In this document: piece after piece, positions 16,152 through 43,412 of the stretch | How the letters are laid out: each line of letters opens with the position of its first letter | How positions within the stretch are numbered: the first letter of the stretch is position 1 | Source of the DNA: a virus | Strand: one strand, 5' to 3' | Length of the DNA stretch: 64,000 nucleotides | Virus record (IMG/VR): IMGVR_UViG_3300045974_000513 | Location: 5,092 to 69,091 of that record | Notes under the pieces: generated by a model | Database searches by the model: none | The model's input: the letters and a program-made list of their open reading frames with translations, nothing else | Told to the model about the DNA's origin: nothing | Translations under genes and position numbers: made by a program

Positions 16152-17945
16152 TCACCTGTTGACGTTCTGGAGCAGCTTCGGGTTCTGGTGAGCCTTGCGG
16201 ATCGCGTCCATCGGGCTCGCCGGGGCTTCGGGCTTCGCGGCTTCCTCGCCGGTCTGTGCGGATGCCGTGTCGAGACCCTTCTCGACCGGCAGGGCCGCAC
16301 GCAGCGCGCCCTTCGGCCTGCGCGCCAGTTCGCTGTTCGCTGCGTCGCGCTCGCTCTCCGCCGCCAGCTTCGCCTTGCGCGCGTTGGCAGCGGCGTCGGC
16401 GGCGACACTCGCCGCCTTGCGAAGGTCGTCTGCCTCCTTCACCTTCTTCGCGATCTCGGTCTTGGCGACGAGGCGCTCGCGGTCCAGCGCCTTCTTGATG
16501 CTGTCGATCTCCTCGGCCTTCCGCTGGGCGTCGGCGGCGGCGACCTCGCGGGCGCGGGTGGCCTCGGCCTTGGCGACGAGGCGGTCGCGCTCGGCGACCT
16601 TCTTGAGCCCGTCGATCTCCTCGCCCTTCCTCTGGGCCTCGGAGAGGGCGGCGTCGCGGGCGCGCGCGGCCTCGTCCCGCTCCACGCGGGCCCGGTCGGC
16701 GGCCTTCTTGATGGTCGAGATCTCCTCCAGCTTCCGCGCGTTCTCGGCGGTCGCCTCGTCGCGGGCCTTGGCGACGTCGTCGCGCTCGACCCGGGCGCGG
16801 TCCAGCGCCTTCCGAAGCGTGGCCGTCTCGGCGTTCACCTTCGCCAGGGTGACGCGCTCGGCGTCGAGCGACGCGGCGGTCGACGAGGCGAGGGCCTCGG
16901 CGGCGTCGACGGCCTTCGACAGCCGGGCGGCGCGCTGGTTGGCGGCGTCGATCTCGGAGGCCATCTTGGTGATGGTGATCTCGGCCCGCTCCGCGTTGGC
17001 CTGCACCTTCGCCAGCCGGTCGCCGGTCGCGTTCAGTTCGGCCTGCGCCTTGGTCGCGCGCTGGGCGAGGACGTCCCGCTCGGTCACCGCCTTCTCGAAC
17101 CGATCCTCGACGGCGTCCCGCTCGACCCGCATCTTCGCGGCGTCGGCGACGGCGTTGTCCCGCTCGACCGACACCTTCGACAGGCGGCTGTCGGTGATCG
17201 CCTTCTCGGCGGCCACCTTCTCGAAAGACGTCTCGGCGAAGTCGCGGGCGGCGCGGACCTTCCCCAACTCCTCGTCGGCCCGGTCGCGTTCCTGCTGCAC
17301 CTTCGCCAGCCGCTCGGACATCGAGTCCCGGTCGCCGGTCAGCTTCGCCACCGCGTGCTCGGCGTCGTCGTTGTCGCTGCGGATCCGCAGGGCGTCGGCC
17401 GAGACCGCGTCCCGCTCGGCCTGCACCTTCGCCAGCCGCTCCCGCATCCCGTCCCGCTCGGCGGAGACCTTCTCCAGCGTCTCGGAGACCTCCGCGTGGG
17501 CCCGGCGCATCTTGGTGACCTCGCCGGTCACCTCGTCGGCGCGCGACGCCACCTTCGCCAGCTTCGTCGAGGTGGTGGTGGCCTGCGCCCGGAGGTCGGC
17601 CAGCGCCTCCTCGGCGGCCCGCGCCCGCGCGGCCTCGGCGTCCCTCTCCTTGCGGAGGGCGGCCAGTTCGACGTTGGCGGCCTTCGCGAGCTTCGCGGCG
17701 CGCGCCTGGAACCTGTTCCCCTCGGCGGAGGTGCCGTCGTCGGTGGCGTCGTCGTCGCGGGTGCCCGTGGACGGGTCGGCTGCGACCTCGCCCGAGGAAC
17801 CGGCACCGCTGCCGCTTCCTGCCTCGGCCTCGCCGCCCTCGGCCGCGCACTCCGGGCACGCGCCGTCGACCAGCGTCGCCCCGCAGTCGTCGCACACCGC
17901 TGCGTCCGCCGCCTCACCCTGTGCCATCGCCTTCGGGTCTGCCAT
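16152..17945 (-). CDS. Nested in-frame scaffold protein (597 aa)
   Basis: AGGAGG-AAGCA-ATG at 17956-17943, in frame with the protease ORF, just before the Zn ribbon and coiled coil. Confidence 0.6.
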   Translation of the reverse strand: MADPKAMAQGEAADAAVCDDCGATLVDGACPECAAEGGEAEAGSGSGAGSSGEVAADPSTGTRDDDATDDGTSAEGNRFQARAAKLAKAANVELAALRKERDAEAARARAAEEALADLRAQATTTSTKLAKVASRADEVTGEVTKMRRAHAEVSETLEKVSAERDGMRERLAKVQAERDAVSADALRIRSDNDDAEHAVAKLTGDRDSMSERLAKVQQERDRADEELGKVRAARDFAETSFEKVAAEKAITDSRLSKVSVERDNAVADAAKMRVERDAVEDRFEKAVTERDVLAQRATKAQAELNATGDRLAKVQANAERAEITITKMASEIDAANQRAARLSKAVDAAEALASSTAASLDAERVTLAKVNAETATLRKALDRARVERDDVAKARDEATAENARKLEEISTIKKAADRARVERDEAARARDAALSEAQRKGEEIDGLKKVAERDRLVAKAEATRAREVAAADAQRKAEEIDSIKKALDRERLVAKTEIAKKVKEADDLRKAASVAADAAANARKAKLAAESERDAANSELARRPKGALRAALPVEKGLDTASAQTGEEAAKPEAPASPMDAIRKAHQNPKLLQNVNR

Positions 17946-20153
17946 TGCTTCCTCCTGCGGCGCGCCGGGGGCGGCCTTGGTGATGTCGATGTCCGTGTCG
18001 GCCTTCGGGCTGAAGGTCGTGAAGCCGGTCTCTTTGTGGGCGCGCGCGGATGCGTCGCGGGCGCGCCGCGTCGCCGCGTCCCGTCCGGCGTCGCCGAGGG
18101 AGGTGTCCCTCGCCGTCCGGTGCGCCTGCTCCGCGATGGCGTGCTGCTGGGCCGCGAAGTTGTGCTGCGCCGCCCCCTGCGCGTCCTTGGCCTGCGACCC
18201 CGCCCGGCGATGGCGCGTGGCCTCCGCCTTGTGGTGTTCGGCCGCCGCCCGGTGAGCGCCGTTGGAGTCGGCCCGCTCGGCGTCCTTCGCCGCGTCCGGC
18301 TGCCGCACGGACTTCTTCCTGGCCGGGGCCTTGGTCTGCCGACCGACGACCGGCTGGCCGTCCTTCCCGAACCCCTTGGTCTCGCGGTTCGGCGCGCCGC
18401 TGCCGCCGCCGTGGCTGTACTGGTTGCCCCGGAATTCGTGACCCGGGACGTCGCCCTTCAGCACCGTGTAGATGGGCTCGCCCTCGTCCGTGAAGCCGTC
18501 CAGCCGCTTCGTGAGGTCGATCTCGACGTCGGCCTTGAACGGGCGGCGCGGGCCTCGCGCGCGGGCTGCCGCCGCCGACGGCGACTCCCCGAACCGACGG
18601 GCGTCGGACGGCCCGGCCTTCTTGCCAGCCGGGGCTGTGCCCGACGAGCCATGCGCCATCGCCCGGACCATCGGGTTGGTCTCGTAGAGCGACTTCCGCT
18701 CGGATGCCCGCGCAGCCTCGGTGCCGCCGCCGCCGCTGTCGAAGGACGCCGCGCGACGGTCCGTGTACGCCTTGGCCCCGGCGCGGATGGTGGCCGTCGC
18801 CTTGTCCTGGGAGGCGGTCATCTGCCGCAGGGCCGACCGCTCGCGCGCCTCGGCCTTCGTCCCCGACTTCTTCCCGCCAGCGCCCACGTCCTCGGCGTAC
18901 TGCTTCCACTCCTCGGGCGACCGTTCCGGCTCGGCGTTGCTGGCGCTGTGCTTCGCGTCGGTGTCCCGCTGATCTCGGATGTCGCGCAGGGCCTGCTTGC
19001 CAGCGAGGCGCGTGGACTTCACGTTCAGGGCCTGGAATGGCGTCTTCCCATCGGCCACGCTGTCGGCGAGGTGCCGCCCGAACGGTGAGTCGAGTAGGTC
19101 GCGCGCGTCCTCGTCGGACCCGCCGATGACCCGCTTCACCTCTTCGCGGGCGTGCGCGTAGGCGGCGTCGGCGCTCTTGCTGCGCTCCCACTCCCACCCC
19201 TCGGCCTCGGCCTTGTCGGGGTCGTCCGGGTCGCGGCGCTCGATGTCCCGCATCCCACCGTAGAACCCGTAGGAGACGTTCTGGGCGGTGTACGGATCCT
19301 CCGCCAGCGTCGCCGCCAACTCCGGTCCCTCGTGGTGATACCCGCCCACGGTCTTGCCCGGCGTGACGCGCGTCTCGTCCTTCTTCGGCGCGATGGCCTC
19401 GGCGTCGGGCGGCGGGGCCTGGACGTGCTTGAGGTCTTCCTTCCCCTCGGCCGCGATCCGCGCCTTCTCTTCCGGCGTCCCGTGCCCGCCCTCGACCTGC
19501 TCGCGGGTCTCCCGGTCGGCCTCGTCCTCCGACCAGCGGTGATGCTCGGACTCGACTCCCGGTCCGTCGCTGGACCCGTCCCCGTACTGGTTGCCTCGGA
19601 AGGGATGGCCCGGCGCGTCCCCCTTCACCACGGGGGCGTTGACGTCGCCTTCCGCCAGCACCTCTGCGGAGACGGTGTCGTCGGTCAGGCCGTCGGCCTT
19701 GAAGAGTTGGATCCGCGCGGCCGGATTCGCCGGGGAGTCGACGAGGCTGATCTCGGTGAGGACGAGCGCCTCGATGATCTTCGCGTCGTGGACGTTGCGT
19801 CCGCCCGGCGGCACGCGCCCACCGATCGAGAAGCCCTTGTACGTCCCGGTCCGCACCTTCAGCACGGCCACCGGATCGACGATATGGGCCTCCAGATAGG
19901 TTTTCCCGTCGCCGTGAACCTCGCACGCGAGCGCGGTGCCCGCTGCGGTCGGCTGGTGCATCTCGCGGATGGCCCCGAACTTCATGTAGCCCGGGATCGC
20001 GAGGCGCATCGCGTCGGCCTTCACCACCTCGCCGTCCTTGTCGACGTCTTCGGTGGACGCGATGCCGCTTACGACGATCGTGCCATCGTCGCGTTGCTCG
20101 ATCTTGGAAAACTCCCCGAAGATCCGTTTCCCGCCGCCGCCACCCATTGCCAT
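16152..20153 (-). CDS. Prohead (maturation) protease + two motif-tagged cargo units + coiled-coil scaffold (1333 aa)
   Basis: N-terminal VSGIASTEDVDKDGE...IREMHQ...YKGFSIGG...EISLVDSPANP (HK97-type serine prohead protease); KGD motifs at 19584-19625 and 18417-18458; Zn ribbon CDDC..CPEC; long coiled coil. Confidence 0.9.
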   Translation of the reverse strand: MAMGGGGGKRIFGEFSKIEQRDDGTIVVSGIASTEDVDKDGEVVKADAMRLAIPGYMKFGAIREMHQPTAAGTALACEVHGDGKTYLEAHIVDPVAVLKVRTGTYKGFSIGGRVPPGGRNVHDAKIIEALVLTEISLVDSPANPAARIQLFKADGLTDDTVSAEVLAEGDVNAPVVKGDAPGHPFRGNQYGDGSSDGPGVESEHHRWSEDEADRETREQVEGGHGTPEEKARIAAEGKEDLKHVQAPPPDAEAIAPKKDETRVTPGKTVGGYHHEGPELAATLAEDPYTAQNVSYGFYGGMRDIERRDPDDPDKAEAEGWEWERSKSADAAYAHAREEVKRVIGGSDEDARDLLDSPFGRHLADSVADGKTPFQALNVKSTRLAGKQALRDIRDQRDTDAKHSASNAEPERSPEEWKQYAEDVGAGGKKSGTKAEARERSALRQMTASQDKATATIRAGAKAYTDRRAASFDSGGGGTEAARASERKSLYETNPMVRAMAHGSSGTAPAGKKAGPSDARRFGESPSAAAARARGPRRPFKADVEIDLTKRLDGFTDEGEPIYTVLKGDVPGHEFRGNQYSHGGGSGAPNRETKGFGKDGQPVVGRQTKAPARKKSVRQPDAAKDAERADSNGAHRAAAEHHKAEATRHRRAGSQAKDAQGAAQHNFAAQQHAIAEQAHRTARDTSLGDAGRDAATRRARDASARAHKETGFTTFSPKADTDIDITKAAPGAPQEEAMADPKAMAQGEAADAAVCDDCGATLVDGACPECAAEGGEAEAGSGSGAGSSGEVAADPSTGTRDDDATDDGTSAEGNRFQARAAKLAKAANVELAALRKERDAEAARARAAEEALADLRAQATTTSTKLAKVASRADEVTGEVTKMRRAHAEVSETLEKVSAERDGMRERLAKVQAERDAVSADALRIRSDNDDAEHAVAKLTGDRDSMSERLAKVQQERDRADEELGKVRAARDFAETSFEKVAAEKAITDSRLSKVSVERDNAVADAAKMRVERDAVEDRFEKAVTERDVLAQRATKAQAELNATGDRLAKVQANAERAEITITKMASEIDAANQRAARLSKAVDAAEALASSTAASLDAERVTLAKVNAETATLRKALDRARVERDDVAKARDEATAENARKLEEISTIKKAADRARVERDEAARARDAALSEAQRKGEEIDGLKKVAERDRLVAKAEATRAREVAAADAQRKAEEIDSIKKALDRERLVAKTEIAKKVKEADDLRKAASVAADAAANARKAKLAAESERDAANSELARRPKGALRAALPVEKGLDTASAQTGEEAAKPEAPASPMDAIRKAHQNPKLLQNVNR
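16930..17570 (-). repeat. 14-aa coiled-coil repeats of the scaffold (hydrophobic-x-K-[VMA]-x-x-E-R-D)
   Basis: LEKVSAERDGMRER / LAKVQAERDAVSAD / LAKVQQERDRADEE / LGKVRAARDFAETS / FEKVAAEKAITDSR / LSKVSVERDNAVAD / FEKAVTERDVLAQR. Confidence 0.85.
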
Positions 20154-20162
20154 GTTGGCGGC

Positions 20163-20722: not shown

Positions 20723-20723
20723 C

Positions 20724-23693
20724 TCAGGCCTCCTTGCCTTGCCGCTTCAAGCGGTCGGTTCCAGCCTTCACCATGAGTTTGTAGTACGCCACCCAGGACG
20801 GTTTGGCGACGTCCTCGACCCTCTTGCCCGCGCGCTCCAGCGCCCGGATCTCCGCGAAGGTCTCGTGCAGCGCCTGCTCCGTGGTGGCCTCCCGTGCTTT
20901 GTACGCGTTCCACCACCGCGTGCTGTACGGGGTGACCCCGTCCTCTTCCGCCAGCGCATCGATGTCCCCCGCCTTGCCGAGGGCTTCCTGCTGCGCGTGC
21001 AGCGGAAACTCGCGCCTCCCACGGGCCGTCAGCGTCCCGTCGGCGCGCATGATCGCGTGCTCCTGCGCGTACTCGAACCGGGCGTCGCCCTCGATCCCCT
21101 TCGCCTCGGCCTCGCGGATGGCGTCGCGGTACTCCGGGGCGACGGACTCCTGAATCCGATCCCCCTCCTCGCCCATCTCGGCCGTCGCTGCGGTGAACTC
21201 CATGTGCCCGATCTCGTGCGCGACCACCGTCCGCGCGTAGTCGTCCCCGATCGCGCCCCACTCGCGGACGTAGATCTTGATGTGCCCCGACTCATTGAAC
21301 GACGCGGATCCGGCGGCGTTGAATTCCTGGCCCATGAGGCTCACGTGGTATGTCTCGTCGGTCAACTCGACCTCGCCGGTGTACCCGAACTCCTTAGTCA
21401 GCGCCTCGACCTTCGACTTCGTCGACTTCCACTCGTCGGTCTCCCGCACCGCTTCGCGCCGGGCCGACTCCTCCTCCAGCTTGGCATCGACGCGGTCGAC
21501 CGCCTTGAAGGCGATCTCGCTGGCGTCTACCGCCCATTGCCGAATGGTCTCGTAGTCGGCGTTTCGGGCCGTTGTCTCGCGCTGCTGATCGGCCAGCGAC
21601 TCCTCGGATGCCCCGGTCCCCATGTCCTCCAGCCACCGCTGCGACTTCTCGGCGGCCCGTGCCGCCCATTGCGCCCGCTCGTGCGCGGCACCAGCCGCAA
21701 GGCACTCTCGGGCGGCCTCCGCGTCCCCATGATCCCTGGCCCAATGGGCAAGGGATGCGAAGTACCCCACCGCGCGCTGGTGCTCGTCGGAGTTAGAGGC
21801 CCCCAGCGCGAAGATCCTGGCCTCTTCCCTCTCCTGCGCCTCGCCGTCGAAGTCCTGGCCGCCGCCGGATGCGCCGTCGGTGTACTGGTTCCCGCGAAAC
21901 GGGTGGCCATCGAAATCGCCCTTCCTCACCGTGGCGGCGAGGCGCTGCACCGTCCGGTACGCCTTCCGCCACTCGGGCGGCGCGGCCTTCGCCAGCGGGT
22001 CGCCCCCCATCACGATCCGGTGGATCTCGGAAAGCGTCTCGGAGATGGCGCTGTGTACCACCGTCGACCGGCCGCGCCAGTAGGTGACGTCGTCCCAGAA
22101 CGCCTTCGCGTAGGGGCTGATCGTCCCGCCGCCCGGGGCCAGCTTCTCCCAGCCCCGCTCCAGCTTCGACATCGCCACCGGGTCGGCCTCCCAGGCAGCG
22201 GAGTACTGCGCGTGGGCGATCTCGTGGGCGATCACGCCGCGCACGTTCCAGTCGGGGTACTTCCGGTGCATCTCGTCGGTCGCGCGCGGGTAGATGGTGA
22301 TCCGACCGTCCTTCTTCGCGTTGAACACGCCCGCGACGGAGTTGGGCAGTCCGTCGAACGTGATCGTCTCGGGCGGATCGTCCACGACGTCGATGCGGCT
22401 GGATGGGAACCCGGTCGCGGCGCAGACCTCTTCGACGGCTGCGCGCGCTGCGGCCACACCCTCGGTCCATTGGTTTCCCCGGAAGGCGTGCCCAGGCAGA
22501 TCGCCCTTGGTGACGCGCACGGTCCGCATCCCCGCGACCTTCACCACCTCGCGGTAGATGCGCTGCCACGCCGGGGAGCAGACGTCCTTGAGCTTCTTCC
22601 CGGTCCGCACCATCCCCCGGATCTCGGCGAACGTCTCGTTCACCGGGTCGAAGATCGGATCCCGCATGGCCCCGCCGCGCGCCTTGGCCTTCTCGTAGTG
22701 CTTCCACCACGACGCGGCGTACTCCGACACGGCAGCGCCCTCCTTCGCCAGCGACTCGCGCGTCCCGAAGCGTTCCAGGGAGGAGACGACCCGCTGCCCG
22801 CCGCCCCGGTGAAACTCGACGTGGGCGATCTCGTGGGCGACGACCTCCCTCACCTCGTCGGTAGGCATCCCGCGCATCTGCCGCGCGTGCAGCGTGATCT
22901 CCTCCCGCGTGGAACTGGCGGTGCCGACCGCCTTCGCCCGCTGGCCCGCCACCGTGAACTCGTGCTCGTCCAGCGTGACGATCACCTTGCCCTTGAAGCC
23001 GAACTCCTTCACGGCGGCATCGACCTTGGCCTGCGCGCTGGCCTTCGTGTTCCGTTCCCGCGTCTCCTTGGCCTTCTGGGCCCACCGGATGGCGGCCTCG
23101 GTGGCGGTGACGGCGGCCCTGCGCGTCGCGTCCGCCGCCTCGTGCGCCGCGACCGTCTCGGGCTTCACCTCGTCGGGGTCCGCCATCGACGCGGTCTCGT
23201 AGTCGGCGCTCGCCGTGGCAGCGGTCTCCTGCAACTCGGCCGCGCGCTCGTAGGCCGCCTTCCGCTTGGGGTCCGTGAGCCGTTTGGCCTCGGACCGCAG
23301 CATGACCGCGCCGTCCTTGAAGTCGGAGTACGTCTCCGGGTTCAGGGCGCGCTCGGTCATCACCTCGCGGACGTACTTCTCCTCCTCCTCGATGTCGGAG
23401 TCGGACTTGTCGCCCTCCCCCCACGCGCCGCCTGCACCCTCAGTCCATTGGTTCCCTCTGAACGGGTGCCCCGGGAGATCCCCCTTGGTGAGAGCCACGC
23501 CCAGGATGTCCGCCACCGGCACCGGCCTCCCCTTCACCGGGACCGCCGACAGGCCGATGGCGTTCCACGCGAGCAACTCGGCGGTCGCCTTGTCCTCACC
23601 GCGCGCCTTCGCCGCGTCGCGTTCGCGCCGCCACACCGCGTTGTGTCGAGGGGGCAGCGCCAGCAGGTACTCGTCCAGCGGAGCCCTATCCAT
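20724..23693 (-). CDS. Cargo polyprotein: ChaB-like N-terminus + three motif-tagged zincin metallopeptidases (989 aa)
   Basis: HEIAH, HEIAH and HEIGH, each followed by [ST]-x-Y-x-x-x-[WF]W and ET[FL][AS]EI; three KGD motifs; N-terminal LPPRHNAVW...AELLAWNAI. Confidence 0.85.
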   Translation of the reverse strand: MDRAPLDEYLLALPPRHNAVWRRERDAAKARGEDKATAELLAWNAIGLSAVPVKGRPVPVADILGVALTKGDLPGHPFRGNQWTEGAGGAWGEGDKSDSDIEEEEKYVREVMTERALNPETYSDFKDGAVMLRSEAKRLTDPKRKAAYERAAELQETAATASADYETASMADPDEVKPETVAAHEAADATRRAAVTATEAAIRWAQKAKETRERNTKASAQAKVDAAVKEFGFKGKVIVTLDEHEFTVAGQRAKAVGTASSTREEITLHARQMRGMPTDEVREVVAHEIAHVEFHRGGGQRVVSSLERFGTRESLAKEGAAVSEYAASWWKHYEKAKARGGAMRDPIFDPVNETFAEIRGMVRTGKKLKDVCSPAWQRIYREVVKVAGMRTVRVTKGDLPGHAFRGNQWTEGVAAARAAVEEVCAATGFPSSRIDVVDDPPETITFDGLPNSVAGVFNAKKDGRITIYPRATDEMHRKYPDWNVRGVIAHEIAHAQYSAAWEADPVAMSKLERGWEKLAPGGGTISPYAKAFWDDVTYWRGRSTVVHSAISETLSEIHRIVMGGDPLAKAAPPEWRKAYRTVQRLAATVRKGDFDGHPFRGNQYTDGASGGGQDFDGEAQEREEARIFALGASNSDEHQRAVGYFASLAHWARDHGDAEAARECLAAGAAHERAQWAARAAEKSQRWLEDMGTGASEESLADQQRETTARNADYETIRQWAVDASEIAFKAVDRVDAKLEEESARREAVRETDEWKSTKSKVEALTKEFGYTGEVELTDETYHVSLMGQEFNAAGSASFNESGHIKIYVREWGAIGDDYARTVVAHEIGHMEFTAATAEMGEEGDRIQESVAPEYRDAIREAEAKGIEGDARFEYAQEHAIMRADGTLTARGRREFPLHAQQEALGKAGDIDALAEEDGVTPYSTRWWNAYKAREATTEQALHETFAEIRALERAGKRVEDVAKPSWVAYYKLMVKAGTDRLKRQGKEA

Positions 23694-31827: not shown

Positions 31828-32652
31828 TTACCCGTTGATGATCTGGCAGTCGCCGACGATGGTCCCGAGGGCCGTGCCCGTGGCGAGGGACATGAGGCAG
31901 AGGCAGGAGTCAGCGAAGACAAGCTGACCCCCGAGGGCGAAGAAGTCCTGCGTCGCCGCGCCGAGGTTGGCGACCATGATCGGCATCGTGGCGATCTTGC
32001 GCACGACGACGACGTTGATGGACCCGGTCGCCGCCGCCGTGCCGCCCACGATGAAGGAGTTGATGCGCTGGACTCCGCTCCCGTTCGCCATGCCAAGCTG
32101 GATCATGCGCTTGGTGGGGTAGCCCGAGAGCGATGCGGTGACGGTGGTGGTCTGCGCCGCGCCGCCCGCTGCCGTACCGTCTTGGTAGCCGACTTGGATC
32201 GTGACCGCCGACGCGGCGATGGCGGTGTTGATCTCCAGCCAGATCTCGCACCCGCCGAAGTCGGTCCCGTCCTGCACGCGCCCGGAGAAGGATGGCTGCG
32301 AGGAGAGGGTGGTCGTGCCCGTGGGGGTGGTCGCGTATGACCCGGAGTGGAAGATCCGGTCGTAGAGCACCAGGGTCTGGGTGGCGGTCGCGGAGGCGCG
32401 GATCGCCGCGAGGTATCCGGTGTTCGCCCCGGTGAAGGGGTTGATGATCGCCGCCCCTGCCGTGTTGTCGGTGGGCACCACGCCGTTCGCGGTGTTGCCG
32501 ATGGTGAGAGTTCCAGCCGCCGGGTTTCCTGCCTCGGCAAAGAGGCTGTACCAGAAGGCGGCGACGGAGGTGAGAGCCGACGCCTTCTGTAGCACCATGT
32601 CCTGGCTGGCGGCCACGGCGGCGGCCAGCCCGTCCATCGTCGTGATCGCCAT
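31828..32652 (-). CDS. Putative virion structural protein (274 aa, beta-rich)
   Basis: MAITTMDGL...FWYSLF...LVLYDRIFHSG; Ala/Thr/Gly-rich composition; coupled to the 154-aa gene. Confidence 0.6.
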   Translation of the reverse strand: MAITTMDGLAAAVAASQDMVLQKASALTSVAAFWYSLFAEAGNPAAGTLTIGNTANGVVPTDNTAGAAIINPFTGANTGYLAAIRASATATQTLVLYDRIFHSGSYATTPTGTTTLSSQPSFSGRVQDGTDFGGCEIWLEINTAIAASAVTIQVGYQDGTAAGGAAQTTTVTASLSGYPTKRMIQLGMANGSGVQRINSFIVGGTAAATGSINVVVVRKIATMPIMVANLGAATQDFFALGGQLVFADSCLCLMSLATGTALGTIVGDCQIING

Positions 32653-32655
32653 GGC

Positions 32656-33120
32656 CTAGAGGATCTCGATGACGCCGGACCCGGACGTCGGGATCGTGCA
32701 GTCGAAGGTGCCAGCCGTTGCGACGATGGGGGCCCCGGCGAACGCGCCGACGTAGATCACCGGCTTGCCCGCGACGCTGTCGTTGTAGATCACGCAGCCG
32801 TCTGCGCTGCCGGTGAAGCCCGTGATCTGCGCCATGTTGGCGAAGTCGAGGTAGCCGGTGTCGGTGGCCAGGGCCACGGTCCTGCCGGTGAGGGTGACGC
32901 CCCCTGCCACGTAGGTGCCGCTCGCCGCGCACTCGTCGGTCCCGAGGTTGGCTACGGTGGGAGCGCCGGTCCCGGGCGTGCCCGCGCCGGTCGTCGCCTT
33001 GCCGTACGTCCCGGCGTGCCCGGTCTTGATCAGCGCGAGCTTGTAGGTGTGCGCCGCCGTGTGGACGCCGTTGAGGAAGTCGAGCTTCGCCTGATTGCAG
33101 AACGCCGTCGTGACAGCCAT
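32656..33120 (-). CDS. Putative virion structural (fibre/whisker-associated) protein (154 aa)
   Basis: AFCNQAKLDFLNGVH...YKLAL...Y.AGG.TL...LDFA...GCVIYND...GTF pattern; AGGAG RBS. Confidence 0.6.
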   Translation of the reverse strand: MAVTTAFCNQAKLDFLNGVHTAAHTYKLALIKTGHAGTYGKATTGAGTPGTGAPTVANLGTDECAASGTYVAGGVTLTGRTVALATDTGYLDFANMAQITGFTGSADGCVIYNDSVAGKPVIYVGAFAGAPIVATAGTFDCTIPTSGSGVIEIL

Positions 33121-35475: not shown

Positions 35476-38400
35476 TTCTTCCCCTTCCGCTTCGGGGCCA
35501 CGATCCCCTCGGCCCGCATCACGAACGGCGAGAAGCCCCCGTTGCGCCCGTCGGTCAGCACGCCGTAGTACTTCGTCTCCGACATCGACTTGTAGACGTC
35601 CTTCGTCGAGATGCGGATCCCGAAGTACCCAGCGCCCGGCACCCACCCCAGCGTCGGGTCGACGACCTCGCCCGTCGCCTTGTCGACCACCCAGGCGTGG
35701 TGCACCGGGAAGGGCACGCGCGCCGAGACCATGTAACCCTCGGTGTACTCGTACTTCGACGGGTCATCCATCATCAGCTTGGTCGCGTTCATGAAGCACT
35801 CCTTCGGCGCGCCCAGCTTGATGTTCGGTGCCCGCGTCGGCACGTCCATCGCCTTCCCGGCCTTCAGCACGTACTTCGCCAGCGCGCCCACGGAGGCCAT
35901 CGGCGCGATGGCGTCGCGCACCTCGTCGGCCGTCATTGGCTGCCCGTCGAGGTCGGCGTCGCTGCGGACCCCGTCCTTCTGCTTGAGACCCTTCAGCCAC
36001 GCCTGCTCCATGCTCGACATCTGCTTGAAGTCGTCGGGCAGCGGCACAGGCTTGCCGGTCTTGGCCGCCTCGTTGCGGTCGGGGCGAAGCGACGGCGGGT
36101 CTTCACCTGAGTCGGGATCCCACCCGGACGCTGCGTCGGCCTCGGCCATCGCCTGGATCTGCGCCCCCAGCTTCGACCCCGGAAGCGCCTCGATCGACGC
36201 GATCTGCGCCGCCTCGGTCCTCGCCTCGGCCCGGTCCTTCTCGGTGAGGAAGCCCCCGGTCTTCGCGCGGGCCTCCACCAGTCGGTCCGCCATCGCCTCC
36301 ATCGTGGTCTGGAACTTCTCGCCGCCCTCCTTGCCCCCACCGCTGGTGTACTGGTTTCCTCTGAAGGGGTGACCGGGCGCGTCCCCCTTGCGGACCTTGG
36401 CCTTGGCCCACGGTCCTCTCAGCGTCAGCGCATCCCGGTGTCGGACCACGACGTCCCGGTCGGCGTCCGTAAACTCCTTCCCGCGCCGGGCGTCCATGCG
36501 GTCCTGCTCTTCGCGGATGGCCTCGCGGCCCCACGGCAGCGCCTCGGACGCGAAGTCGCCGCGTCGCCCCTGGCCGACGTACTCGCTGGCCTCCTCGCGC
36601 GTCTTGAACGCGCCGCTGTGCGTGACGAACCCGTCCTCCCAGTCGTCCTCGGTCCAGTCGGGCACCGAGAGGATGTCGTGGGACGCGCCGGTAGCGACGA
36701 TCTTGCCGGTGCTCTTCTGGCGGAACCCGGCAGCGCGGAACGGCGCGCCCTTCCCGTCCCACCGATCGCCTCCGCTTGCACCGTCGGTGTGCTGATTCCC
36801 TCGGAAGGGATGGCCCTCTGCGTCCCCCTTGCCGACCCAGCCCTTCGCCACCCAGTCGATCGAGCGCCGCACCGCCTTCACGATCGCGCCCTCGTTGCCG
36901 CGCAGCGCCTTCTCGATGGCGTCCCGGTCGACCCGGACGTTGACGACGTACCCGTCCTCCGCGAACCCGTAGACCTCGCCGCCCTTGTTGGTCGCGTTGG
37001 TCAGCGTCATCCGCAGCAGCACGCGCCCGTCCTTCGACGAGAAGTCCGTCTGCCCCTTCTCGATCAGCGCCTTCGGGTCCGCGCCGTAGGTCTTCGCCAT
37101 CTTCTCGAACTGCTTCTGGTTCAGGTCGAGCACCTTGCCCAACTCCTCGTTGGCGCGGTACCTCGTCGCGTGGACCGTGAGGTGGTCTTCCTCCCACGAG
37201 AAGCCGTCCATCTTCGCGCCCACCATCCCCAGCGTCATCTTGGGCAGCATCCCCGTGATCTCGCCCGCCGCCTTCGTGAAGCGCGCCTTCACCTCGGACG
37301 AGAGGTCGCCGCGCGCACCGATCTGCTCGCGGATCGTCTTCACGCACGTCGCCCGGTCGATCTTCTTCTGGGCGAACTGCGTCAGCGTCTTGATGGACTC
37401 GGGCACCGACCGAAGCAGCGGCGGCGTCTTCTCCTTGGCGAACAGCGCCATGTTGTCGGCCACCGCGAACGCCGTGCCCACCGGCTCGTTGGCGAAGTCG
37501 ATGCCCGCCCAGTCGTGGCCTGCGATCAGGGCCCGGACCTGCTGCGCCCCGTGCGCGCCGAAGGCCTCCTTCACGTCGGGGATCAGCGCATCCTCCGCGT
37601 ACTGCGTGCTCCACCGTGGGTGGTCGCCGTCGAGGAACATCCGCGAGGGTGGCGTGAGGTAGCCCGTGTCGTGGTAGACGGCTGCGAGGGTGACGGCCAC
37701 CCGGTTCTCGGGCGTGTTCTGGTTGCCCGGCAGCACCTTGAGGATGTCCTTCGCCATCTCCGCGTCGCCGTTGAGATGGTGGATGCCGTGGTCGCCCAGC
37801 GTGCGCGACTGCGCCTCGAACTCCTGGGCGATGAGGTGATCGGAGGCTGCCATCGTGAGGCGAGCCGCGACCTCCGGGTGGACGCCCGCCTGGATCAACT
37901 CGTCGTGCAGCCCGCCCACCATCGTCGCAGCGGTCTCGATCGACTTCTCGTGCATCTGGTCGGCGTACTGCATCACGCGCGCGATCGAGTCGGCCCGGCC
38001 ATCGCCCGTGGACGGCCGCTCCCGGTCGCCCAGCAACTCCTCCATCCGCGCAGGCACGGTCGTCTCGGGGTCCGCCAGCGTGTCGCGGTCCCGCACCGAC
38101 ATGCGCGCCCACTTGTCCTTCACCGTGCCGACGTTGTTGTCCTTGGAGTCGGCCGCCAGCGCCGCGTCCGCCTTCTCGCGCCAGTAGTCGAGGGACATCG
38201 TGCCGCGCCGGTCCTCGGCCTCGGCCGTGGTGTCGCGGCTGGTGCCAGCGTCGTCCTCGTCGCCGCCACCGCCGGTCCCATCGGTCCATTGGTTCCCTCT
38301 GAAGGGATGCCCGTCGCTGTCGCCCTTGCCGATCCGGCTGGCCTTCGGGTGATCCTTCAGCCGCGCCGCGACGATCTGGTCCGCCTCGGCCTTCGACCCC

Positions 38401-41400
38401 ACGTAGTCGGCGGAGTGCGTCTCGTTCCCCTCGGCGTCCTTCCGCTGCACCACCCAGTTGCGCGAGTGGCGGTCGTACCAGCGCTCGATGGTCGCAACCG
38501 GCACGTCCATCATCGCGGGGTGGCGATCGAAGGCGTCGTCCACCGGATCAGCGGGCTGCGCCTTCGACGCGAGGTGCGCCTTGTACTGCTGGACCGCCTC
38601 CTCCTTGTCGAACGTGGAGGTCTCGAACCGCTTCGCGCTCGGCCCGTCCGCCGGGTCTTGGAACGCCCAGACCTTGCCCGCCGACTCCTCGTCCACGTCC
38701 TCGGCGTTGTCGGGATCCTCCTCCTTGATGGCGAGGTGCGGCTTGCCATCGATGTTGGCGACCGCGTCGCACTCTTGGTAGAGGAAGTCGGAATTCGACA
38801 TCGAGACGCCGCGAATCGCGCCCTCCTTCTTGGGCATCTTCACTCGCGCCTCGTAGAGCAGGAACGCGTCGTACCCGAAGTCGAAGTGGTCGATGTTGTC
38901 GCGCTTCGCCTCGGGCATCGCGGCCAGCGCGTCGGCCATCCGCTCGCGGTCGGCGCGCGAACGCTCGTGCGGCCTGACCTTGTTGTCGGGCAGGGAAGCG
39001 CCGCCTGCTGCGCCGCCCCCCGTGCCATCGGAGAACTGGTTTCCACGGAAAGGGTGCCCCGCGAAGTCGCCCTTCTTCACCCCGGCGCGCGCGTAGGCGT
39101 CCAGGGTGCCGATCAGGAAGGCGTCCTTCCCGAACCGCATCCCGTCCCACCCCTTCGCCTTCAGCCGGGCGATGGCGCGGTCGTTCCCCTGGATGAACAC
39201 CTCCGCCGCCAGATCGTCGAAGTCGGTGCGCGACATCGACGCTGGGTCGACCCCGGTGGCGTACCCGACGATGGCCTTCGCCCCCGGCGCGTTCCAGTCC
39301 CCCAGGTCGAGCAGGCGCGGCTGGCGATGCACACCGTAGGCCTTGGTGTCGCCCCATTGCCCTGCGCTCGCCCGGTCCGTGCTGACGTACACGCCCTGCG
39401 GGAAGGAGGAGGAGACCTGTTCGTTGCCTCCCGCCGATCCCCGGTAGACGACGTCCGGCAGGCTGCCCCCACCGTCGGTGTACTGATTGCCTCGGAAGGG
39501 GTGTCCATCGACGTCCCCCTTCGCCACCTTCTCGGCATCGAACCCGACGCCGCCCTCGTCCGCTGCCTGCGGGTCGTCGACGAGGATGGGGATCACCGCG
39601 CACCGGCAGTTCGGATGGGCAGGCGGCCCCTCGATCTGGTCGCCGTCGTAGTCGAAGAGGCTGCCCAGCGGCACCTCCTCGCCGTCCATCTCGTCGCACT
39701 TCGGGCAGCAGTCCGCGCCGGTCGCCCAGCGCACGCCCTCGACCACGCCTGAGTCCTCCCAGGCGATGAGGTTGCCCGCGACGTTGGCGATGGCGAGTTC
39801 GGTGCGCGCGATCATCTCGGCGCGCGGCCCGTGGAACAGCGGGTTCGTGTAGAGGGCCTCCCGAAGCTGGGCGACGGTCGCCTCGTCCTCGATGGCGGCC
39901 TCGACCATGCGCTGCACACCGTCCTGCATCGTGTTCGTGATGCCGGTGATCATGTTGCCCGCGTGCAGGGTGGCCCACTCCGCCGCGCGCTGATGCACGA
40001 GGTCGATCGCCACGCCGACGGAGAGGACGCCCTGCGACCGCAGTTGCTTCAGCGCCGCCTCGGCAGCGAGCTTCACGGTGTCGCCCAGGTCGCCCTGGAT
40101 GGCTGCGATCAGGGAGTCGAGGTCTTCCTGCGTGACGACCGTCCGCAGCCGATCGATGTCGGCAGCGGTGATGGTGATGCCCTCGGCCTTCTCGACCTCG
40201 ACGCCCAACTCCTGGGCGAGGCGCGCGAGGTACTCGGCGAAGAACACGTTGAGGCGGCCAGCGATGACCTCCTCCAACGCGGTCAGTCGGGGTACCGCAT
40301 GACCCGGTCTTTTCCGGGGACCGCGCGTCCCCCGACCTCCCTTCAGCACGTCGAGGTCGAGGTCGGCCTTGTAGCTGGCCTTCGACCGGGACGCCTCTCG
40401 GGCCGCTTGGCTGTGCGCGCGGGCCGACGGGTGCTTCTGGCGCAGCGCCTCGGCAGCGAGCCTGTGCTTGGCCTCGATGGTGCGGTGATGCGTCGCGGCC
40501 TGCTCGTCGTTCCCTCGCTCGGCGCGTTCGGCCTGCCCGCGCGAGTACTCTGCGGCGGCCTCGTGCTGGTCGGGCTTCCTCGCGCTTCGGGCGGCCTTGT
40601 ACTGGCGCATCTCCTCGGCGTAGTCGCGCGGGCCCTCGGGCGCGGGAGCGCTTCCACCGTCGGAGTACTGGTTGCCTCGGAATTCGTGGCCGGGGATGTC
40701 ACCCTTGGCGAGCCAGAGGAGGCGGTCCTTGGAACGGAAGACGACGTCACCGTTCTCCAGCGTGGTGTAGTCCCCCTCGTGCTGTAGCTTGGCGAACGGG
40801 TTGGGCTTCTTCGCGCCGAACGGCGGAGCACCACCAGCGGGCTTCCCCCCGAACGGACTGCCCCCCTTGGCCCCGAACGGCGGCGCACCTGTTGGCTTTC
40901 CGAACGGCGGCGCGCCGGGCTTGCCCCCCCCGAACGGATTCGGCTTCGCACCGAACGGAGGCGGCGGCCCACCGGGGCCTCCCTGGGGGGGTGAAGGCGG
41001 CCCGGACGATCCAGGCACTCCCGGTGGACCGCCAAAGGGATTCATCGGCGGAGGCGGCGGGTCGTCGAGCCCCTCGATCGGCTCCCACCCGTAGGCGTCG
41101 CGCGCCTCGTTCTTCGTGGCGATGCCTGCGGCGGTGAGGGCGCACCAGACGTCCGACTTGATCTTCGGGTCGCTGATCTCCTCGTCCTCGTAGGCGAACT
41201 CCATCTCGGGCGCGTCGAACGCGGTCGCGAGGATGGTGTCCATCACGTCCTTCCACCACAGCTTCAGCGGTTCGAGGCCCTCGGACAGCGCCTGCTTCTC
41301 GGCTGTCTCGGCGGTGGCGCGGTTCATCTGCGCAACCAGCGCCTGGGGGGAGAGGCTGAACGCGTAGCAGATGAGCCGCGCGAGCCACTCGTCGAACATG

Positions 41401-43412
41401 TCCTTGAGGATCGGCTCCTTCGTGGGGATGGGCTTGATGCCGCCGGGGACGAAGCGCATGCGGCGGCGCGCCTCGGTGTCGCCCGACAGGATGGTGTCCC
41501 AGTAGGTCTGGAATTCGGCGACCTGGGCCGGGGTCCACGTCTCGGGGACGCCCATGATCATGTCGGGGATGGAACCGGCGGTGTAGTACTCGCCCTGCGA
41601 CATCTGGCGGCGCAGCGCGATGTCCACCGTGGTGACGACCTGCTCGACGGGGCTCTGCCCGTAGATGCGGTTCGAGCGCACGTTGCGCGGCGAGTACACG
41701 ACCTCGTCGGTGGTGTACTGGAACGCGGGCATCCCCTTGAGGTTCTGGACGAAGGCGGGGTCGGGCGGGCGAGGGGTGCGGCCGTCCTCGCGCAAGAGGC
41801 GCTTCAGCGTCGCGCCGTCCACGACCTCCAGCAGGACGCCGACCTCGTCGGCGGTGTGCGTGGCGATCTTGATGGGCTTCTTCGCCATCGGGTTGCCGTC
41901 GGGATCGAGCAGGGGCTTGCCCTGGGCGTCGAGGCGCGGCTTGAAGTCGGCGGGGGGCAGGGGCGCGCCGTCGGGCCCCAGCTTCGGTTCCTCGGGCGGC
42001 AGAGGCTTCCCGTCCGGGCCGAGGCGAGGCTTCGCGGGGGGCAGGGGCTTACCATCGGGACCGAGGCGCGGCTTCTCGTCGCCGCCCTCCTCGTCGGCGG
42101 GGCCGAACGGCTTGTCGCCTGTCGGTGCATCCTGCTTCTCGCCAGCCCGCGCCTCGCGATCACCACTCGCAGGAGACCCCGGACGTGCGCCGGGCGACGG
42201 TGGCGTGCCCTCGCCCCCCTCGGACGGCGGTTCGCCGTCTCGCTGCGACCCCTCCGCCCTGACGCCAGCGCCGGGCTGCGCGCCAGCGTCCCTGCCATCG
42301 GCTACGGCAGGCCCCTCCCTCTTCGGGCCGCCCGGGAACCGCCCGGCGGCCTTCGCGATGTCCTCGCCGATCGACAGCTTGCGGGCCGCGAACGGGTTCG
42401 GCTTCTTCTCGGGCTGCGCCGGATCACCATTCGAGGAACCGGCGTCGCTGCCGGTTCCTCCGGTCGGCTCGGCCCGCGCGTCCCGCGCCGATGCGTCACG
42501 GGGTGCGGCGAGGGATCCCGATGCGGGAGCGTCGCCTGCGGGAGGCTCGCCACCGAACGACCAATGGTCGTCCTTGCCCTCCGCCGGGGCCCCGGCCTGC
42601 CCCGCAGGGCCGCGCGGCGCGCCCAAGGGGCGTCCCTGGTCGCCTTCAGCACCCGCCTCGCCGGGCGGGCCGCCAGCTTCGCCAGCGCCCTGCTCCTGGC
42701 CGTCGCCCTGCCCGTCGAGCCCGCCCTCGATCGCGCCCTCGTCGTCCTGCGTCGGCTGCCCGAACGGCGGCGGCCCACCCTGGCCCGGCACCTTCCCGCC
42801 CAGCGCCCCAGGCACGCCCATCACGTCCGGCTCGTCCTCGATCGACGACGGCAGGTTCGGCTTGCCCCGGGTCCGGTTGATGTAGATGGCGGGCGCGTCG
42901 ATCACCAGCAGGTCTTCCAGCAGCGCCCGCTGCCACACGCGGAACGGCGTCACGCCATCGGGCCGACGCAGCGCAGCCTTGATCGCCCGCGCCTTCTCGC
43001 CGCCGTTGCCCTGGTCGTCGCGCAGCTTGATCGTCCATTGCTGCCCGGCCATCTGATCCTTGCGGGTCTCGATGGCGAGGCGCATCAGGTCGAGCCCGCC
43101 CAGTAGCGGATCCGCCATGCGCCGCAGGGTGGTGAAGTTGATCAGGTTCTCGCCTGTCTCTCCACGAGGCAGGTACGTCATGTTCACGGCGAACGGGTAG
43201 TCGAAGGCGCGGCCCTTCGACTCGTCGGGCGCGACAGGCGGCATGGGCTTCGATGGCCCGAACCAACCGTCGGGCGCGCGCCCGGTGATCGCGAAGCGCG
43301 CTGCCGAGGAGACCGTGTCCCAGAACGACTTGGAGGGCTCGACCTTGCCGGGCTGCGTCTCCGTCATCTCGATCTCGCGGCCCCCGGCCGCCTTCCCATT
43401 CGGCGTCGCCAT
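35472..43412 (-). CDS. Portal protein fused to MuF (SPP1 gp7-like) and six motif-tagged cargo units (2646 aa)
   Basis: Portal motifs (LAIETRKDQ, YGQSPVEQ, DEWLARLIC, MNRATAE, EGLEPL) directly after terL; MuF RAEMIARTE...CPKC...PPAHPNCRC; then ART-like, unknown, HD hydrolase, small domain and papain-like peptidase. Confidence 0.92.
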   Translation of the reverse strand: MATPNGKAAGGREIEMTETQPGKVEPSKSFWDTVSSAARFAITGRAPDGWFGPSKPMPPVAPDESKGRAFDYPFAVNMTYLPRGETGENLINFTTLRRMADPLLGGLDLMRLAIETRKDQMAGQQWTIKLRDDQGNGGEKARAIKAALRRPDGVTPFRVWQRALLEDLLVIDAPAIYINRTRGKPNLPSSIEDEPDVMGVPGALGGKVPGQGGPPPFGQPTQDDEGAIEGGLDGQGDGQEQGAGEAGGPPGEAGAEGDQGRPLGAPRGPAGQAGAPAEGKDDHWSFGGEPPAGDAPASGSLAAPRDASARDARAEPTGGTGSDAGSSNGDPAQPEKKPNPFAARKLSIGEDIAKAAGRFPGGPKREGPAVADGRDAGAQPGAGVRAEGSQRDGEPPSEGGEGTPPSPGARPGSPASGDREARAGEKQDAPTGDKPFGPADEEGGDEKPRLGPDGKPLPPAKPRLGPDGKPLPPEEPKLGPDGAPLPPADFKPRLDAQGKPLLDPDGNPMAKKPIKIATHTADEVGVLLEVVDGATLKRLLREDGRTPRPPDPAFVQNLKGMPAFQYTTDEVVYSPRNVRSNRIYGQSPVEQVVTTVDIALRRQMSQGEYYTAGSIPDMIMGVPETWTPAQVAEFQTYWDTILSGDTEARRRMRFVPGGIKPIPTKEPILKDMFDEWLARLICYAFSLSPQALVAQMNRATAETAEKQALSEGLEPLKLWWKDVMDTILATAFDAPEMEFAYEDEEISDPKIKSDVWCALTAAGIATKNEARDAYGWEPIEGLDDPPPPPMNPFGGPPGVPGSSGPPSPPQGGPGGPPPPFGAKPNPFGGGKPGAPPFGKPTGAPPFGAKGGSPFGGKPAGGAPPFGAKKPNPFAKLQHEGDYTTLENGDVVFRSKDRLLWLAKGDIPGHEFRGNQYSDGGSAPAPEGPRDYAEEMRQYKAARSARKPDQHEAAAEYSRGQAERAERGNDEQAATHHRTIEAKHRLAAEALRQKHPSARAHSQAAREASRSKASYKADLDLDVLKGGRGTRGPRKRPGHAVPRLTALEEVIAGRLNVFFAEYLARLAQELGVEVEKAEGITITAADIDRLRTVVTQEDLDSLIAAIQGDLGDTVKLAAEAALKQLRSQGVLSVGVAIDLVHQRAAEWATLHAGNMITGITNTMQDGVQRMVEAAIEDEATVAQLREALYTNPLFHGPRAEMIARTELAIANVAGNLIAWEDSGVVEGVRWATGADCCPKCDEMDGEEVPLGSLFDYDGDQIEGPPAHPNCRCAVIPILVDDPQAADEGGVGFDAEKVAKGDVDGHPFRGNQYTDGGGSLPDVVYRGSAGGNEQVSSSFPQGVYVSTDRASAGQWGDTKAYGVHRQPRLLDLGDWNAPGAKAIVGYATGVDPASMSRTDFDDLAAEVFIQGNDRAIARLKAKGWDGMRFGKDAFLIGTLDAYARAGVKKGDFAGHPFRGNQFSDGTGGGAAGGASLPDNKVRPHERSRADRERMADALAAMPEAKRDNIDHFDFGYDAFLLYEARVKMPKKEGAIRGVSMSNSDFLYQECDAVANIDGKPHLAIKEEDPDNAEDVDEESAGKVWAFQDPADGPSAKRFETSTFDKEEAVQQYKAHLASKAQPADPVDDAFDRHPAMMDVPVATIERWYDRHSRNWVVQRKDAEGNETHSADYVGSKAEADQIVAARLKDHPKASRIGKGDSDGHPFRGNQWTDGTGGGGDEDDAGTSRDTTAEAEDRRGTMSLDYWREKADAALAADSKDNNVGTVKDKWARMSVRDRDTLADPETTVPARMEELLGDRERPSTGDGRADSIARVMQYADQMHEKSIETAATMVGGLHDELIQAGVHPEVAARLTMAASDHLIAQEFEAQSRTLGDHGIHHLNGDAEMAKDILKVLPGNQNTPENRVAVTLAAVYHDTGYLTPPSRMFLDGDHPRWSTQYAEDALIPDVKEAFGAHGAQQVRALIAGHDWAGIDFANEPVGTAFAVADNMALFAKEKTPPLLRSVPESIKTLTQFAQKKIDRATCVKTIREQIGARGDLSSEVKARFTKAAGEITGMLPKMTLGMVGAKMDGFSWEEDHLTVHATRYRANEELGKVLDLNQKQFEKMAKTYGADPKALIEKGQTDFSSKDGRVLLRMTLTNATNKGGEVYGFAEDGYVVNVRVDRDAIEKALRGNEGAIVKAVRRSIDWVAKGWVGKGDAEGHPFRGNQHTDGASGGDRWDGKGAPFRAAGFRQKSTGKIVATGASHDILSVPDWTEDDWEDGFVTHSGAFKTREEASEYVGQGRRGDFASEALPWGREAIREEQDRMDARRGKEFTDADRDVVVRHRDALTLRGPWAKAKVRKGDAPGHPFRGNQYTSGGGKEGGEKFQTTMEAMADRLVEARAKTGGFLTEKDRAEARTEAAQIASIEALPGSKLGAQIQAMAEADAASGWDPDSGEDPPSLRPDRNEAAKTGKPVPLPDDFKQMSSMEQAWLKGLKQKDGVRSDADLDGQPMTADEVRDAIAPMASVGALAKYVLKAGKAMDVPTRAPNIKLGAPKECFMNATKLMMDDPSKYEYTEGYMVSARVPFPVHHAWVVDKATGEVVDPTLGWVPGAGYFGIRISTKDVYKSMSETKYYGVLTDGRNGGFSPFVMRAEGIVAPKRKGKK

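Follow-up and report, generated by a model that had tools for sequence, protein, structure and literature searches.

A repeated 14-residue peptide at module borders in the head polyproteins of an uncultured phage, a candidate core of a prohead-protease junction signal

The window analyzed here is a stretch of 64,000 nucleotides (nt) from a virus, bases 5092 to 69091 of the 69,091-bp IMG/VR virus record IMGVR_UViG_3300045974_000513, which is rated 87% complete. Its head module contains six open reading frames (ORFs), named A to F, in which a 14-residue peptide with the pattern KGDxxGHxFRGNQ[YWFH], hereafter the tag, is repeated 25 times at the borders of unrelated modules. In our judgment there is about an even chance that this 14-mer is the core of a two-part junction signal, consisting of a cut site and a specificity core, for the processing of capsid-loaded polyvalent proteins by the prohead protease.

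A six-frame regular-expression (regex) search of the whole window returned 25 strict matches, all on the minus strand and all in frame in the six ORFs (6 in A, 4 in B, 7 in C, 3 each in D and E, and 2 in F), which is the number and division counted earlier by a model that had seen only the letters and their reading frames (the sequence-only reading). The same 25 sites were recovered with a back-translated DNA pattern in the whole 69,091-bp record, with none on the opposite strand, and a chance origin of the repeat was rejected because a reversed control pattern had no match in that record. The 10 invariant residues are encoded differently from copy to copy, a mean of 4.59 of the 10 codons differing per pair and none of the 300 pairs being identical. 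DNA identity among the copies is 75% within the tag and near random beyond it, the 60-nt flanks being ~35 to 41% identical, which is near random at this GC content. A recent DNA duplication was rejected as the origin of the copies because their codons differ, and this variation indicates that the repeat is kept by selection on the peptide. The tagged ORFs, with lengths in amino acids (aa), and the tags have the following positions in the window.

35472..43412, minus strand, ORF A, 2646 aa: portal (residues 1-902), MuF unit and five more tagged units; Pfam Phage_portal at 560-773 and Phage_Mu_F at 1166-1274
33124..35646, minus strand, ORF B, cargo-only polyprotein, 840 aa from GTG (gene-caller version P0020: 783 aa); 4 tags
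26036..31825, minus strand, ORF C, cargo-only polyprotein, 1929-aa open frame (gene-caller version P0002: 1511 aa); 7 tags
23686..26064, minus strand, ORF D, cargo-only polyprotein, 792 aa, two ART-PolyVal units; Pfam ART-PolyVal E 3.4e-30, 2 stretches
20724..23693, minus strand, ORF E, cargo-only polyprotein, 989 aa, three zincin-like units; SprT-like, M48, Zincin_1 and Reprolysin matches
16152..20153, minus strand, ORF F, 1333 aa: prohead protease, tag, unit F1, tag, scaffold-like coiled coil
40665..40706, minus strand, tag A-903 (after portal)
39480..39521, minus strand, tag A-1298 (after MuF)
39033..39074, minus strand, tag A-1447
38286..38327, minus strand, tag A-1696
36789..36830, minus strand, tag A-2195
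36348..36389, minus strand, tag A-2342
35335..35376, minus strand, tag B-91
34765..34806, minus strand, tag B-281
34240..34281, minus strand, tag B-456
33772..33813, minus strand, tag B-612
30248..30289, minus strand, tag C-513
29756..29797, minus strand, tag C-677
28961..29002, minus strand, tag C-942
28478..28519, minus strand, tag C-1103
28076..28117, minus strand, tag C-1237 (sole copy in which the residue two before Lys is not hydrophobic)
27419..27460, minus strand, tag C-1456
26936..26977, minus strand, tag C-1617
25921..25962, minus strand, tag D-35
25240..25281, minus strand, tag D-262
24673..24714, minus strand, tag D-451
23445..23486, minus strand, tag E-70
22467..22508, minus strand, tag E-396
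21882..21923, minus strand, tag E-591
19584..19625, minus strand, tag F-177 (directly behind the protease domain)
18417..18458, minus strand, tag F-566 (before the scaffold-like region)

The tags lie in linkers between modules. No Pfam envelope overlaps a tag (portal at 560-773, MuF at 1166-1274, ART at 301-442, SprT at 232-295, and ParB_N at 725-782), both ART-PolyVal units of ORF D stop ~12 to 15 residues short of the next tag, and the tag behind the protease domain is disordered in an AlphaFold2 (AF2) model, with a predicted local distance difference test (pLDDT) score below 50. A Gly-rich, often acidic stretch directly follows each window tag, and no Pfam family covers the tag itself (25 tag-centered pieces searched at E values up to 10). 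These results bear out the placement at domain boundaries and the Gly-rich or acidic linker described in the sequence-only reading, and its unit length of 130 to 500 aa holds for 24 of the 25 units, which measure 134 to 499 aa, but not for the last unit of ORF F, with 768 aa. The ~25 tag-headed units span some 25 kb of the 69-kb genome. In 24 of the 25 window tags a hydrophobic residue, any residue, and Lys (hydrophobic-x-Lys) stand immediately before GD, tag C-1237 being the exception.

The form of the signal was examined further in 172 unique complete tagged ORFs in loci of other viral contigs. Of the 76 that are up to 360 aa long, 61 have the core in their first 46 residues (median index, 26; minimum, 15), and the tag is near the C-terminus in only 1 of the 172, so that the tag is a header and not a trailer. 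Stand-alone tagged proteins start with one of a few conserved leader types of 10 to 25 residues, which end in hydrophobic-x-Lys right before GD. Hydrophobic-x-Lys is canonical in 213 of 250 unique contexts and is found within 14 residues of the core in 240 of them, against a background of 2.1% per residue; in a variant class, the Lys is placed five residues further upstream, with an insert of the GGPGSGAQ type. The conserved unit thus has two parts, hydrophobic-x-Lys and then GDxxGHxF[R/H]GNQ[W/Y/H], followed by a Gly-rich spacer, and the distance between the two parts is variable. Three proteins (L041, 6276-6707; L072, 1758-2483; L123, 1473-2390) have a leader ending in hydrophobic-x-Lys without the GH..GNQ core, which suggests that leader and core are independent elements. 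In the stand-alone relatives, leader plus tag would correspond to a short shared N-terminal peptide of the kind that targets T4 proteins to the capsid, whereas the window tags are internal, and no leader of the classes found in other phages was recognizable on ORFs B to E. The leaders of the stand-alone proteins and the leader-only proteins indicate that the 14-mer is probably not the whole address; it looks like a "cut here" or specificity element, with the address given by an N-terminal leader or a structural domain. The 14-mer proposed as a tag in the sequence-only reading is accordingly real and portable, but the conserved unit is larger and two-part, and a leader is added in stand-alone proteins.

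The modules that follow the tag in other phages are varied. The 76 small ORFs have few and diverse Pfam matches (HipA_2, PI3/PI4 kinase, RelA_SpoT, DUF3626, and others), and the matches in 83 tagged ORFs of 361 to 800 aa are to Peptidase_S78_2 (8 ORFs), Peptidase_S78 (2 ORFs), Phage_Mu_F (4 ORFs), portal families (3 ORFs), Zeta_toxin, Acb1, and ART-PolyVal (1 ORF each), and three GNAT families (1 ORF each). DUF5872 and DUF6496 are also matched in tagged proteins of other phages, and DUF6496, read from the sequence in front of the tag, may be a module neighboring it. The tag is also found behind protease, MuF, and portal domains. It therefore heads unrelated domains and goes with head genes and polyvalent, MuF-type proteins, as the sequence-only reading had proposed.

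A scan of IMG/VR with the strict pattern identified at least 116 stretches, with GC contents of 0.42 to 0.69, and a looser regex found 371 copies with 254 unique contexts in these loci. Their logo reads [VIL]-x-K-G-D-x-x-G-H-x-F-[RH]-G-N-Q-[WYH]-[TS], followed by Gly. A profile of 37 columns built from 145 tags and run against 1.84 billion representative proteins matched 2,382 protein clusters at E values up to 0.001, of which 485 reach 1e-10 and 88 reach 1e-30, with up to 9 tag copies per protein. None of ten matches looked up is functionally named; of their three name entries, two read "hypothetical protein" and one is a bare backslash. The strict pattern had no match in 185,579 prokaryote genomes, and the pattern allowing Arg or His had two, both on contigs of metagenome-assembled genomes; a prophage or cellular motif was rejected on these counts, and the near-absence indicates that the tag belongs to non-integrated phages. 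The varied downstream domains agree with what the sequence-only reading had expected of such searches. Its claim of confinement to the head module stands for the 69,091-bp record, which has no other copy, but tagged genes outside the head module occur in other phages. In two large records, a complete 121-kb phage and its relative (G001 and G003; L036, 6621-9745), a second cluster of stand-alone tagged genes is distant from the head genes, on both strands, and beside helicase-like and ParB-like genes.

Among 50,697 GenBank phage records, a 27-aa tag query had one match, Xanthomonas phage Rb1 (PQ569993), in which a variant tag with an intact core and Asp for Lys is located at about residue 739 of a 1221-aa "internal head protein" (L125, 12013). 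The same stretch of Rb1 carries genes annotated as "defense against restriction A N-terminal protein" and as a 2238-aa "chromatin remodeling complex ATPase," the latter of which we read as DarB-like. The change from Lys to Asp hints that the position preceding GD might vary with the specificity of the phage's own protease.

The link between the tag and one family of prohead proteases is seen first in ORF F, which has the following parts besides its two tags and unit F1.

19626..20153, minus strand, prohead protease domain, F residues 1-176, assemblin fold, His66 and Ser109; phrog_21715, E 2.6e-53
16155..18416, minus strand, scaffold-like region behind the second F tag: basic His/Ala-rich stretch, CxxC...CxxC, and long coiled coil with repeats

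The AF2 model of the protease is confident for residues 7 to 143, and in a Foldseek search its best match was T4 gp21 (5jbl; probability, 1.00; E 1.3e-4), followed by herpesvirus assemblins. The Pfam S78 match of the window protease has an E value of 0.021, with 15.4 bits against a cut-off of 21, and jackhmmer connects the protein with PF14550-positive proteins. A tblastn search with the protease gave matches in 933 phage records, and most of the 40 records listed, including those of T5-like phages, are annotated as capsid or head maturation proteases or prohead proteases. His66 and Ser109 are invariant in 12 aligned relatives and, judging from their positions, are the putative catalytic residues. 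In the AF2 model of the protease with the tag, no scissile bond is readable in the disordered tag, and co-folding of the protease domain (residues 1 to 160) with the tag gave a score of 0.00, below the mark, which speaks neither for nor against binding. The CxxC...CxxC stretch (window 17838-17909, F residues 749-772), just before the coiled coil, has a weak match to the Pfam double zinc ribbon (DZR; E 0.028).

In the closest relatives (L010, L050, L073, and L023), which have the same capsid, portal, and protease families, the sole tag of the examined locus is carried by the protease gene, where it separates the protease domain from a tail that has a basic stretch and a coiled coil like those of ORF F and a similar C-terminal end. 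This layout indicates that the ancestral arrangement is protease-tag-scaffold, into which F1 and its own tag were inserted in the window, and the position of the only tag of these loci in the protease gene indicates that the reader of the tag must be a core head protein. In other lineages, a ParB-like or zeta-kinase-like part is found behind the protease tag. Protease-scaffold fusions are known from tailed phages, such as P2 gpO and lambda C/Nu3, and ORF F and its relatives resemble them in that an N-terminal prohead protease is joined to a coiled-coil, scaffold-like tail; they differ in having a tag at the joint, with modules inserted or substituted behind it.

The protease family was detected in 42 of the 116 tag loci, which are fragments. 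Five large records hold 10 to 22 tags each; a search of these with the single protease sequence was too insensitive (one weak match in the five records), and a Pfam family search was used instead. In four of the five, among them both complete records, the main tag cluster contains or is bordered by a PF14550 protease gene, and the fifth, which is 69% complete, begins inside its tag cluster. As for the bond that would be cut, the window protease domain itself ends in a hydrophobic-x-Lys site, and hydrophobic-x-Lys is kept at residues 10 to 12 of the capsid proteins in seven relatives. In T5, which has a homologous protease, pb8 reads HLK and then AVN at 157-162, and pb11 has LAK and then SMN near its end. 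T5 pb8 is taken to lose its first 159 residues, the cut falling after residue 159. T5 pb11 removes the scaffolding domain (PMC5292684).

A further arrangement was observed in XkdF-type lineages, which encode very acidic scaffold-like proteins of ~311 aa (L044, 8011-8943; L028, 5736-6674; L058, 4061-4972; L029, 258-1199; and others). Their N-terminal segment matches the final strand of the prohead protease fold and has hydrophobic-x-Lys at its end. In these lineages the protease genes themselves appear to lack that strand, and this may be a split or tethering arrangement.

The units behind the window tags carry several unrelated effector-type domains per polypeptide (ART-PolyVal, SprT-like/M48/Zincin_1, ParB_N, and MuF), as is typical of the polyvalent protein class, and four signatures of this class were found: ART-PolyVal, MuF, a zincin-like metallopeptidase, and an assemblin-like peptidase fused to cargo. 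HExxH is present in six units (B1, C2, C5, E1, E2, and E3), the number of zincins given in the sequence-only reading, and BLAST ties five of them (C2, C5, E1, E2, and E3) to each other. Other assignments of that reading gained support in part, and its remaining ART-like units, its second ParB-like unit, and its papain-like units are candidates. Of its seven ART-like units, D1 and D2 match ART-PolyVal in Pfam and A2 is similar to D2 by BLAST, while B3 has a weak PTS_2-RNA match (KptA/Tpt1 type); for ParB, B4 has a ParB_N match (ORF B residues 725-782) with an E value of 2.7e-5, just under the Pfam cut-off; and its HD hydrolase corresponds to a weak match of A4 (ORF A residues 1886-1954, E 0.059). 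The Phage_Mu_F match in ORF A (E 2.8e-6) is also just under the cut-off. A tblastn search with ORF D returned ART homologs only. The ORFs lacking a recognized structural domain are four (B, C, D, and E) rather than three, and the "about 25 effectors" of that reading is a count of units, whose effector role is putative.

Polyvalent proteins were defined as giant multidomain proteins of head modules that carry ART-PolyVal, zincin-like, ParB-like, and MuF domains and assemblin-like peptidases fused to cargo, and they are thought to be packaged and injected, with proteolytic processing proposed (Iyer, Burroughs, Anand, de Souza, and Aravind 2017, PMC5512222). The account given there differs from the window in that zincins are proposed as the processing enzymes and no junction peptide is described; "GNQ" and "linker" each occur 0 times in its main text, and its supplementary alignments may bear on an earlier sighting. 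A literature search found no description of the tag peptide, and the sequence-only reading had known of none.

On the reading that the tag is the core of a junction signal, the polyproteins would enter the procapsid, with ORFs A and F carried by their own structural domains (portal, MuF, and protease-scaffold), ORFs B to E entering via their N-terminal segments, and stand-alone relatives entering via the leader of 10 to 25 aa. The assemblin-fold prohead serine protease of the phage would cut every junction, most likely after Lys, and the core would give specificity, so that the junctions alone are cut and the diverse enzymes are spared. The released modules (zincins, ADP-ribosyltransferase-like, ParB-like, and others) would remain in the head and exit with the DNA, and a cut after Lys would leave GDxxGHxF[R/H]GNQ as the N-terminus of every mature module. 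We infer procapsid entry, the cut and its exact bond, head retention, and ejection from the header position and two-part form of the signal, the leaders without core, the tag in the protease gene of the simplest relatives, the T4 gp21-like protease near tags, hydrophobic-x-Lys in the capsid proteins, the disordered tags outside domains, and published precedents.

A close precedent is the capsid-targeting sequence of T4, found on the internal proteins IPI-III and Alt, which is likewise a short, portable N-terminal peptide on unrelated internal proteins, coupled to a cut by the prohead protease gp21, a protein with the same fold as the window protease. The T4 protease cuts after Leu/Ile-x-Glu. 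There is no sequence likeness between the two signals, and the window tag is also repeated inside polyproteins and behind structural domains; in addition, the residue before the cut (position P1) is Glu in T4 and probably Lys in the window, where the site is hydrophobic-x-Lys and then GD, and the T4 leader is removed by the cut, whereas the long core in the window follows the probable cut. In phage P1, according to PMC12810830, the N-terminus of DarA and the capsid protein are cut by the prohead protease Pro, and anti-defense proteins are loaded into the head. The Dar system, in which DarB, Hdf, DdrA/B, and Ulx are packaged, resembles the window in its head-loaded proteins, and the Rb1 variant tag is near Dar-type annotations; it differs in that no common junction peptide is described for Dar proteins. 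Presence in the virion proteome is reported for the polyvalent protein gp47 of phi24B (bioRxiv 10.64898/2026.04.10.717836). The polyvalent class (PMC5512222) and the principle of a leader with a prohead-protease cut (T4; P1 DarA, PMC12810830) are thus already described.

Several points weigh against a junction signal for the prohead protease. Because the loci were seeded by the strict pattern, the conservation figures are biased upward. The core has 13 near-invariant prime-side residues, which is far beyond the need of known prohead-protease sites, and Rb1, the one cultured example found, has Asp where Lys is expected before GD. Cleavable-looking sites without the core, at the capsid N-terminus and in leader-only proteins, indicate that a cut does not depend on the core, provided that such sites are processed at all. 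Finally, no leader of the classes found in other phages is recognizable on the cargo-only ORFs B to E, which could instead enter the head by way of the core.

These last points lead to the rival that fares best, although we consider it rather unlikely: the core would be a docking (cargo-loading) peptide that binds an interior head component, such as the capsid protein, scaffold, portal, or protease carrier, and any cut would be secondary. It would then resemble the capsid-targeting sequence of T4 or the cargo-loading peptides of encapsulins, which are short and conserved, have a flexible Gly-rich linker, and address unrelated enzymes into an HK97-fold shell. The tag has a similar flexible Gly-rich spacer behind it, and its core, long and near-invariant across GC contents of 0.42 to 0.69 and many lineages, is more what one would expect of a binding epitope than of a protease subsite, although encapsulin peptides are unrelated in sequence, usually C-terminal, and uncut. 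Docking would also supply the trans-acting address needed by the four cargo-only ORFs of the window and by the tagged genes that other phages carry at a distance from their head genes, and it agrees with the cut-like sites that occur without the core. However, one tag per polypeptide would do for docking, yet each module has one; stand-alone proteins always add a leader and hydrophobic-x-Lys, which a pure docking peptide would not need; and in the simplest relatives the tagged protein is the protease-scaffold protein itself, for which no address is necessary.

If the cut is after Lys, all mature modules begin with the same GDxxGHxF[R/H]GNQ, which is odd for a spent processing site and raises the idea that the core acts in the host after ejection, as a common N-terminal handle that binds a host factor or the incoming DNA or protects the new N-terminus. 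This is quite improbable, since the scaffold-like tail of the protease gene is tagged too and the tag is conserved over very different GC contents and presumably different hosts. Slightly less probable still is cutting of the junctions by cargo peptidases, the six zincin-like units or papain-like units, instead of the prohead protease. This phage has six HExxH units, and zincin-like metallopeptidases were argued by Iyer et al. to process polyvalent proteins (PMC5512222), but no zincin is among the families listed for the 76 small and 83 mid-size tagged ORFs, and the loci of the simplest relatives show terminase, portal/MuF, protease-tag-scaffold, and capsid genes, zincins not having been searched for there. 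Self-cleavage of the peptide, for instance by Asn cyclization at Gly-Asn-Gln, which the invariant Asn near an invariant His might allow, resembles no self-cleaving motif that we know of, and a neutral linker serving as a recombination joint, suggested by the evident exchange of modules among phages and by their insertion together with a tag, is at odds with DNA identity that becomes near random outside the tag, which makes homologous recombination there unlikely and points to selection on the peptide, so that we give both together very little credence.

All six tagged ORFs are situated between the terminase and the probable capsid gene. The order on the minus strand is terminase large subunit, A, B, two untagged genes of 154 and 274 aa, C, D, E, an untagged 106-aa ORF, F, a 484-aa capsid candidate, and a head-tail adaptor, and the untagged border genes are located as follows.

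43737..45272, minus strand, terminase large subunit, upstream border of the head module; phrog_38, E 4.1e-114
14638..16092, minus strand, probable major capsid protein, 484 aa, no tag, downstream border of the head module; phrog_13692 over the full length, E 3.2e-121, function unnamed
13625..14233, head-tail adaptor

The 484-aa protein is taken as the capsid protein because of its position between the protease-scaffold gene and the head-tail adaptor and its full-length match to an unnamed PHROG. Its AF2 model is poor (mean pLDDT, 50.7), the Foldseek capsid matches are weak (best E 0.059), and no informative match came from a profile search of PDB sequences. The 1929-aa ORF C named in the sequence-only reading exists as an open frame, but the real gene is probably the 1511-aa version; the gene-caller start is placed downstream of the N-terminal repeats of the frame, in which the GC content at second codon positions (GC2) is atypical (0.81 to 0.84). 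The first ~418 codons of the frame (window 30572-31825, minus strand) are degenerate Ala/Ser/Thr/Arg-rich repeats of ~19 residues each, and this 1.25-kb part may extend the N-terminus as low-complexity sequence, belong to another frame, or consist of non-coding repeats. Of the two untagged genes amid the cargo array, the 154-aa gene (32656-33120, minus strand) matches only phrog_644, of unknown function, and no match was found for the 274-aa gene (31828-32652, minus strand); both proteins are rich in Ala, Gly, and Thr and may be structural. A 2859-aa ORF (window 711-9290, minus strand) that lies downstream of the head genes and has only a weak "virion structural protein" PHROG match, at residues 2115 to 2300, is probably a giant tail protein. 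A 194-aa gene (window 45269-45853, minus strand) upstream of the terminase large subunit has a PHROG "Rnase E" match (E 1.1e-17) and weak matches to helix-turn-helix (HTH) families and, by its position, may encode the small terminase subunit.

Phages carry head proteins that disarm the host at injection, and how these are directed to the head and set free has, to our knowledge, been worked out only in a few models (T4, P1, and phiKZ-like phages). In uncultured phages, at least 2,382 protein clusters have the tag at their module borders; the tag is linked to one protease family, and the window is an extreme case of its use. It would provide a rule by which effectors carried in the head could be recognized in metagenome sequences and a testable model of how polyvalent proteins are cut, and it might also serve for loading proteins into phage particles. 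More tentatively, and on balance doubtfully, the core may be a general, portable capsid-cargo code that many uncultured virulent lineages read through one conserved head component and that suffices for the processing and carriage of any protein. If this is true, phages would build and reshuffle their injected arsenals by adding tag-plus-module units, and the code could be reused to load chosen proteins into phage heads.

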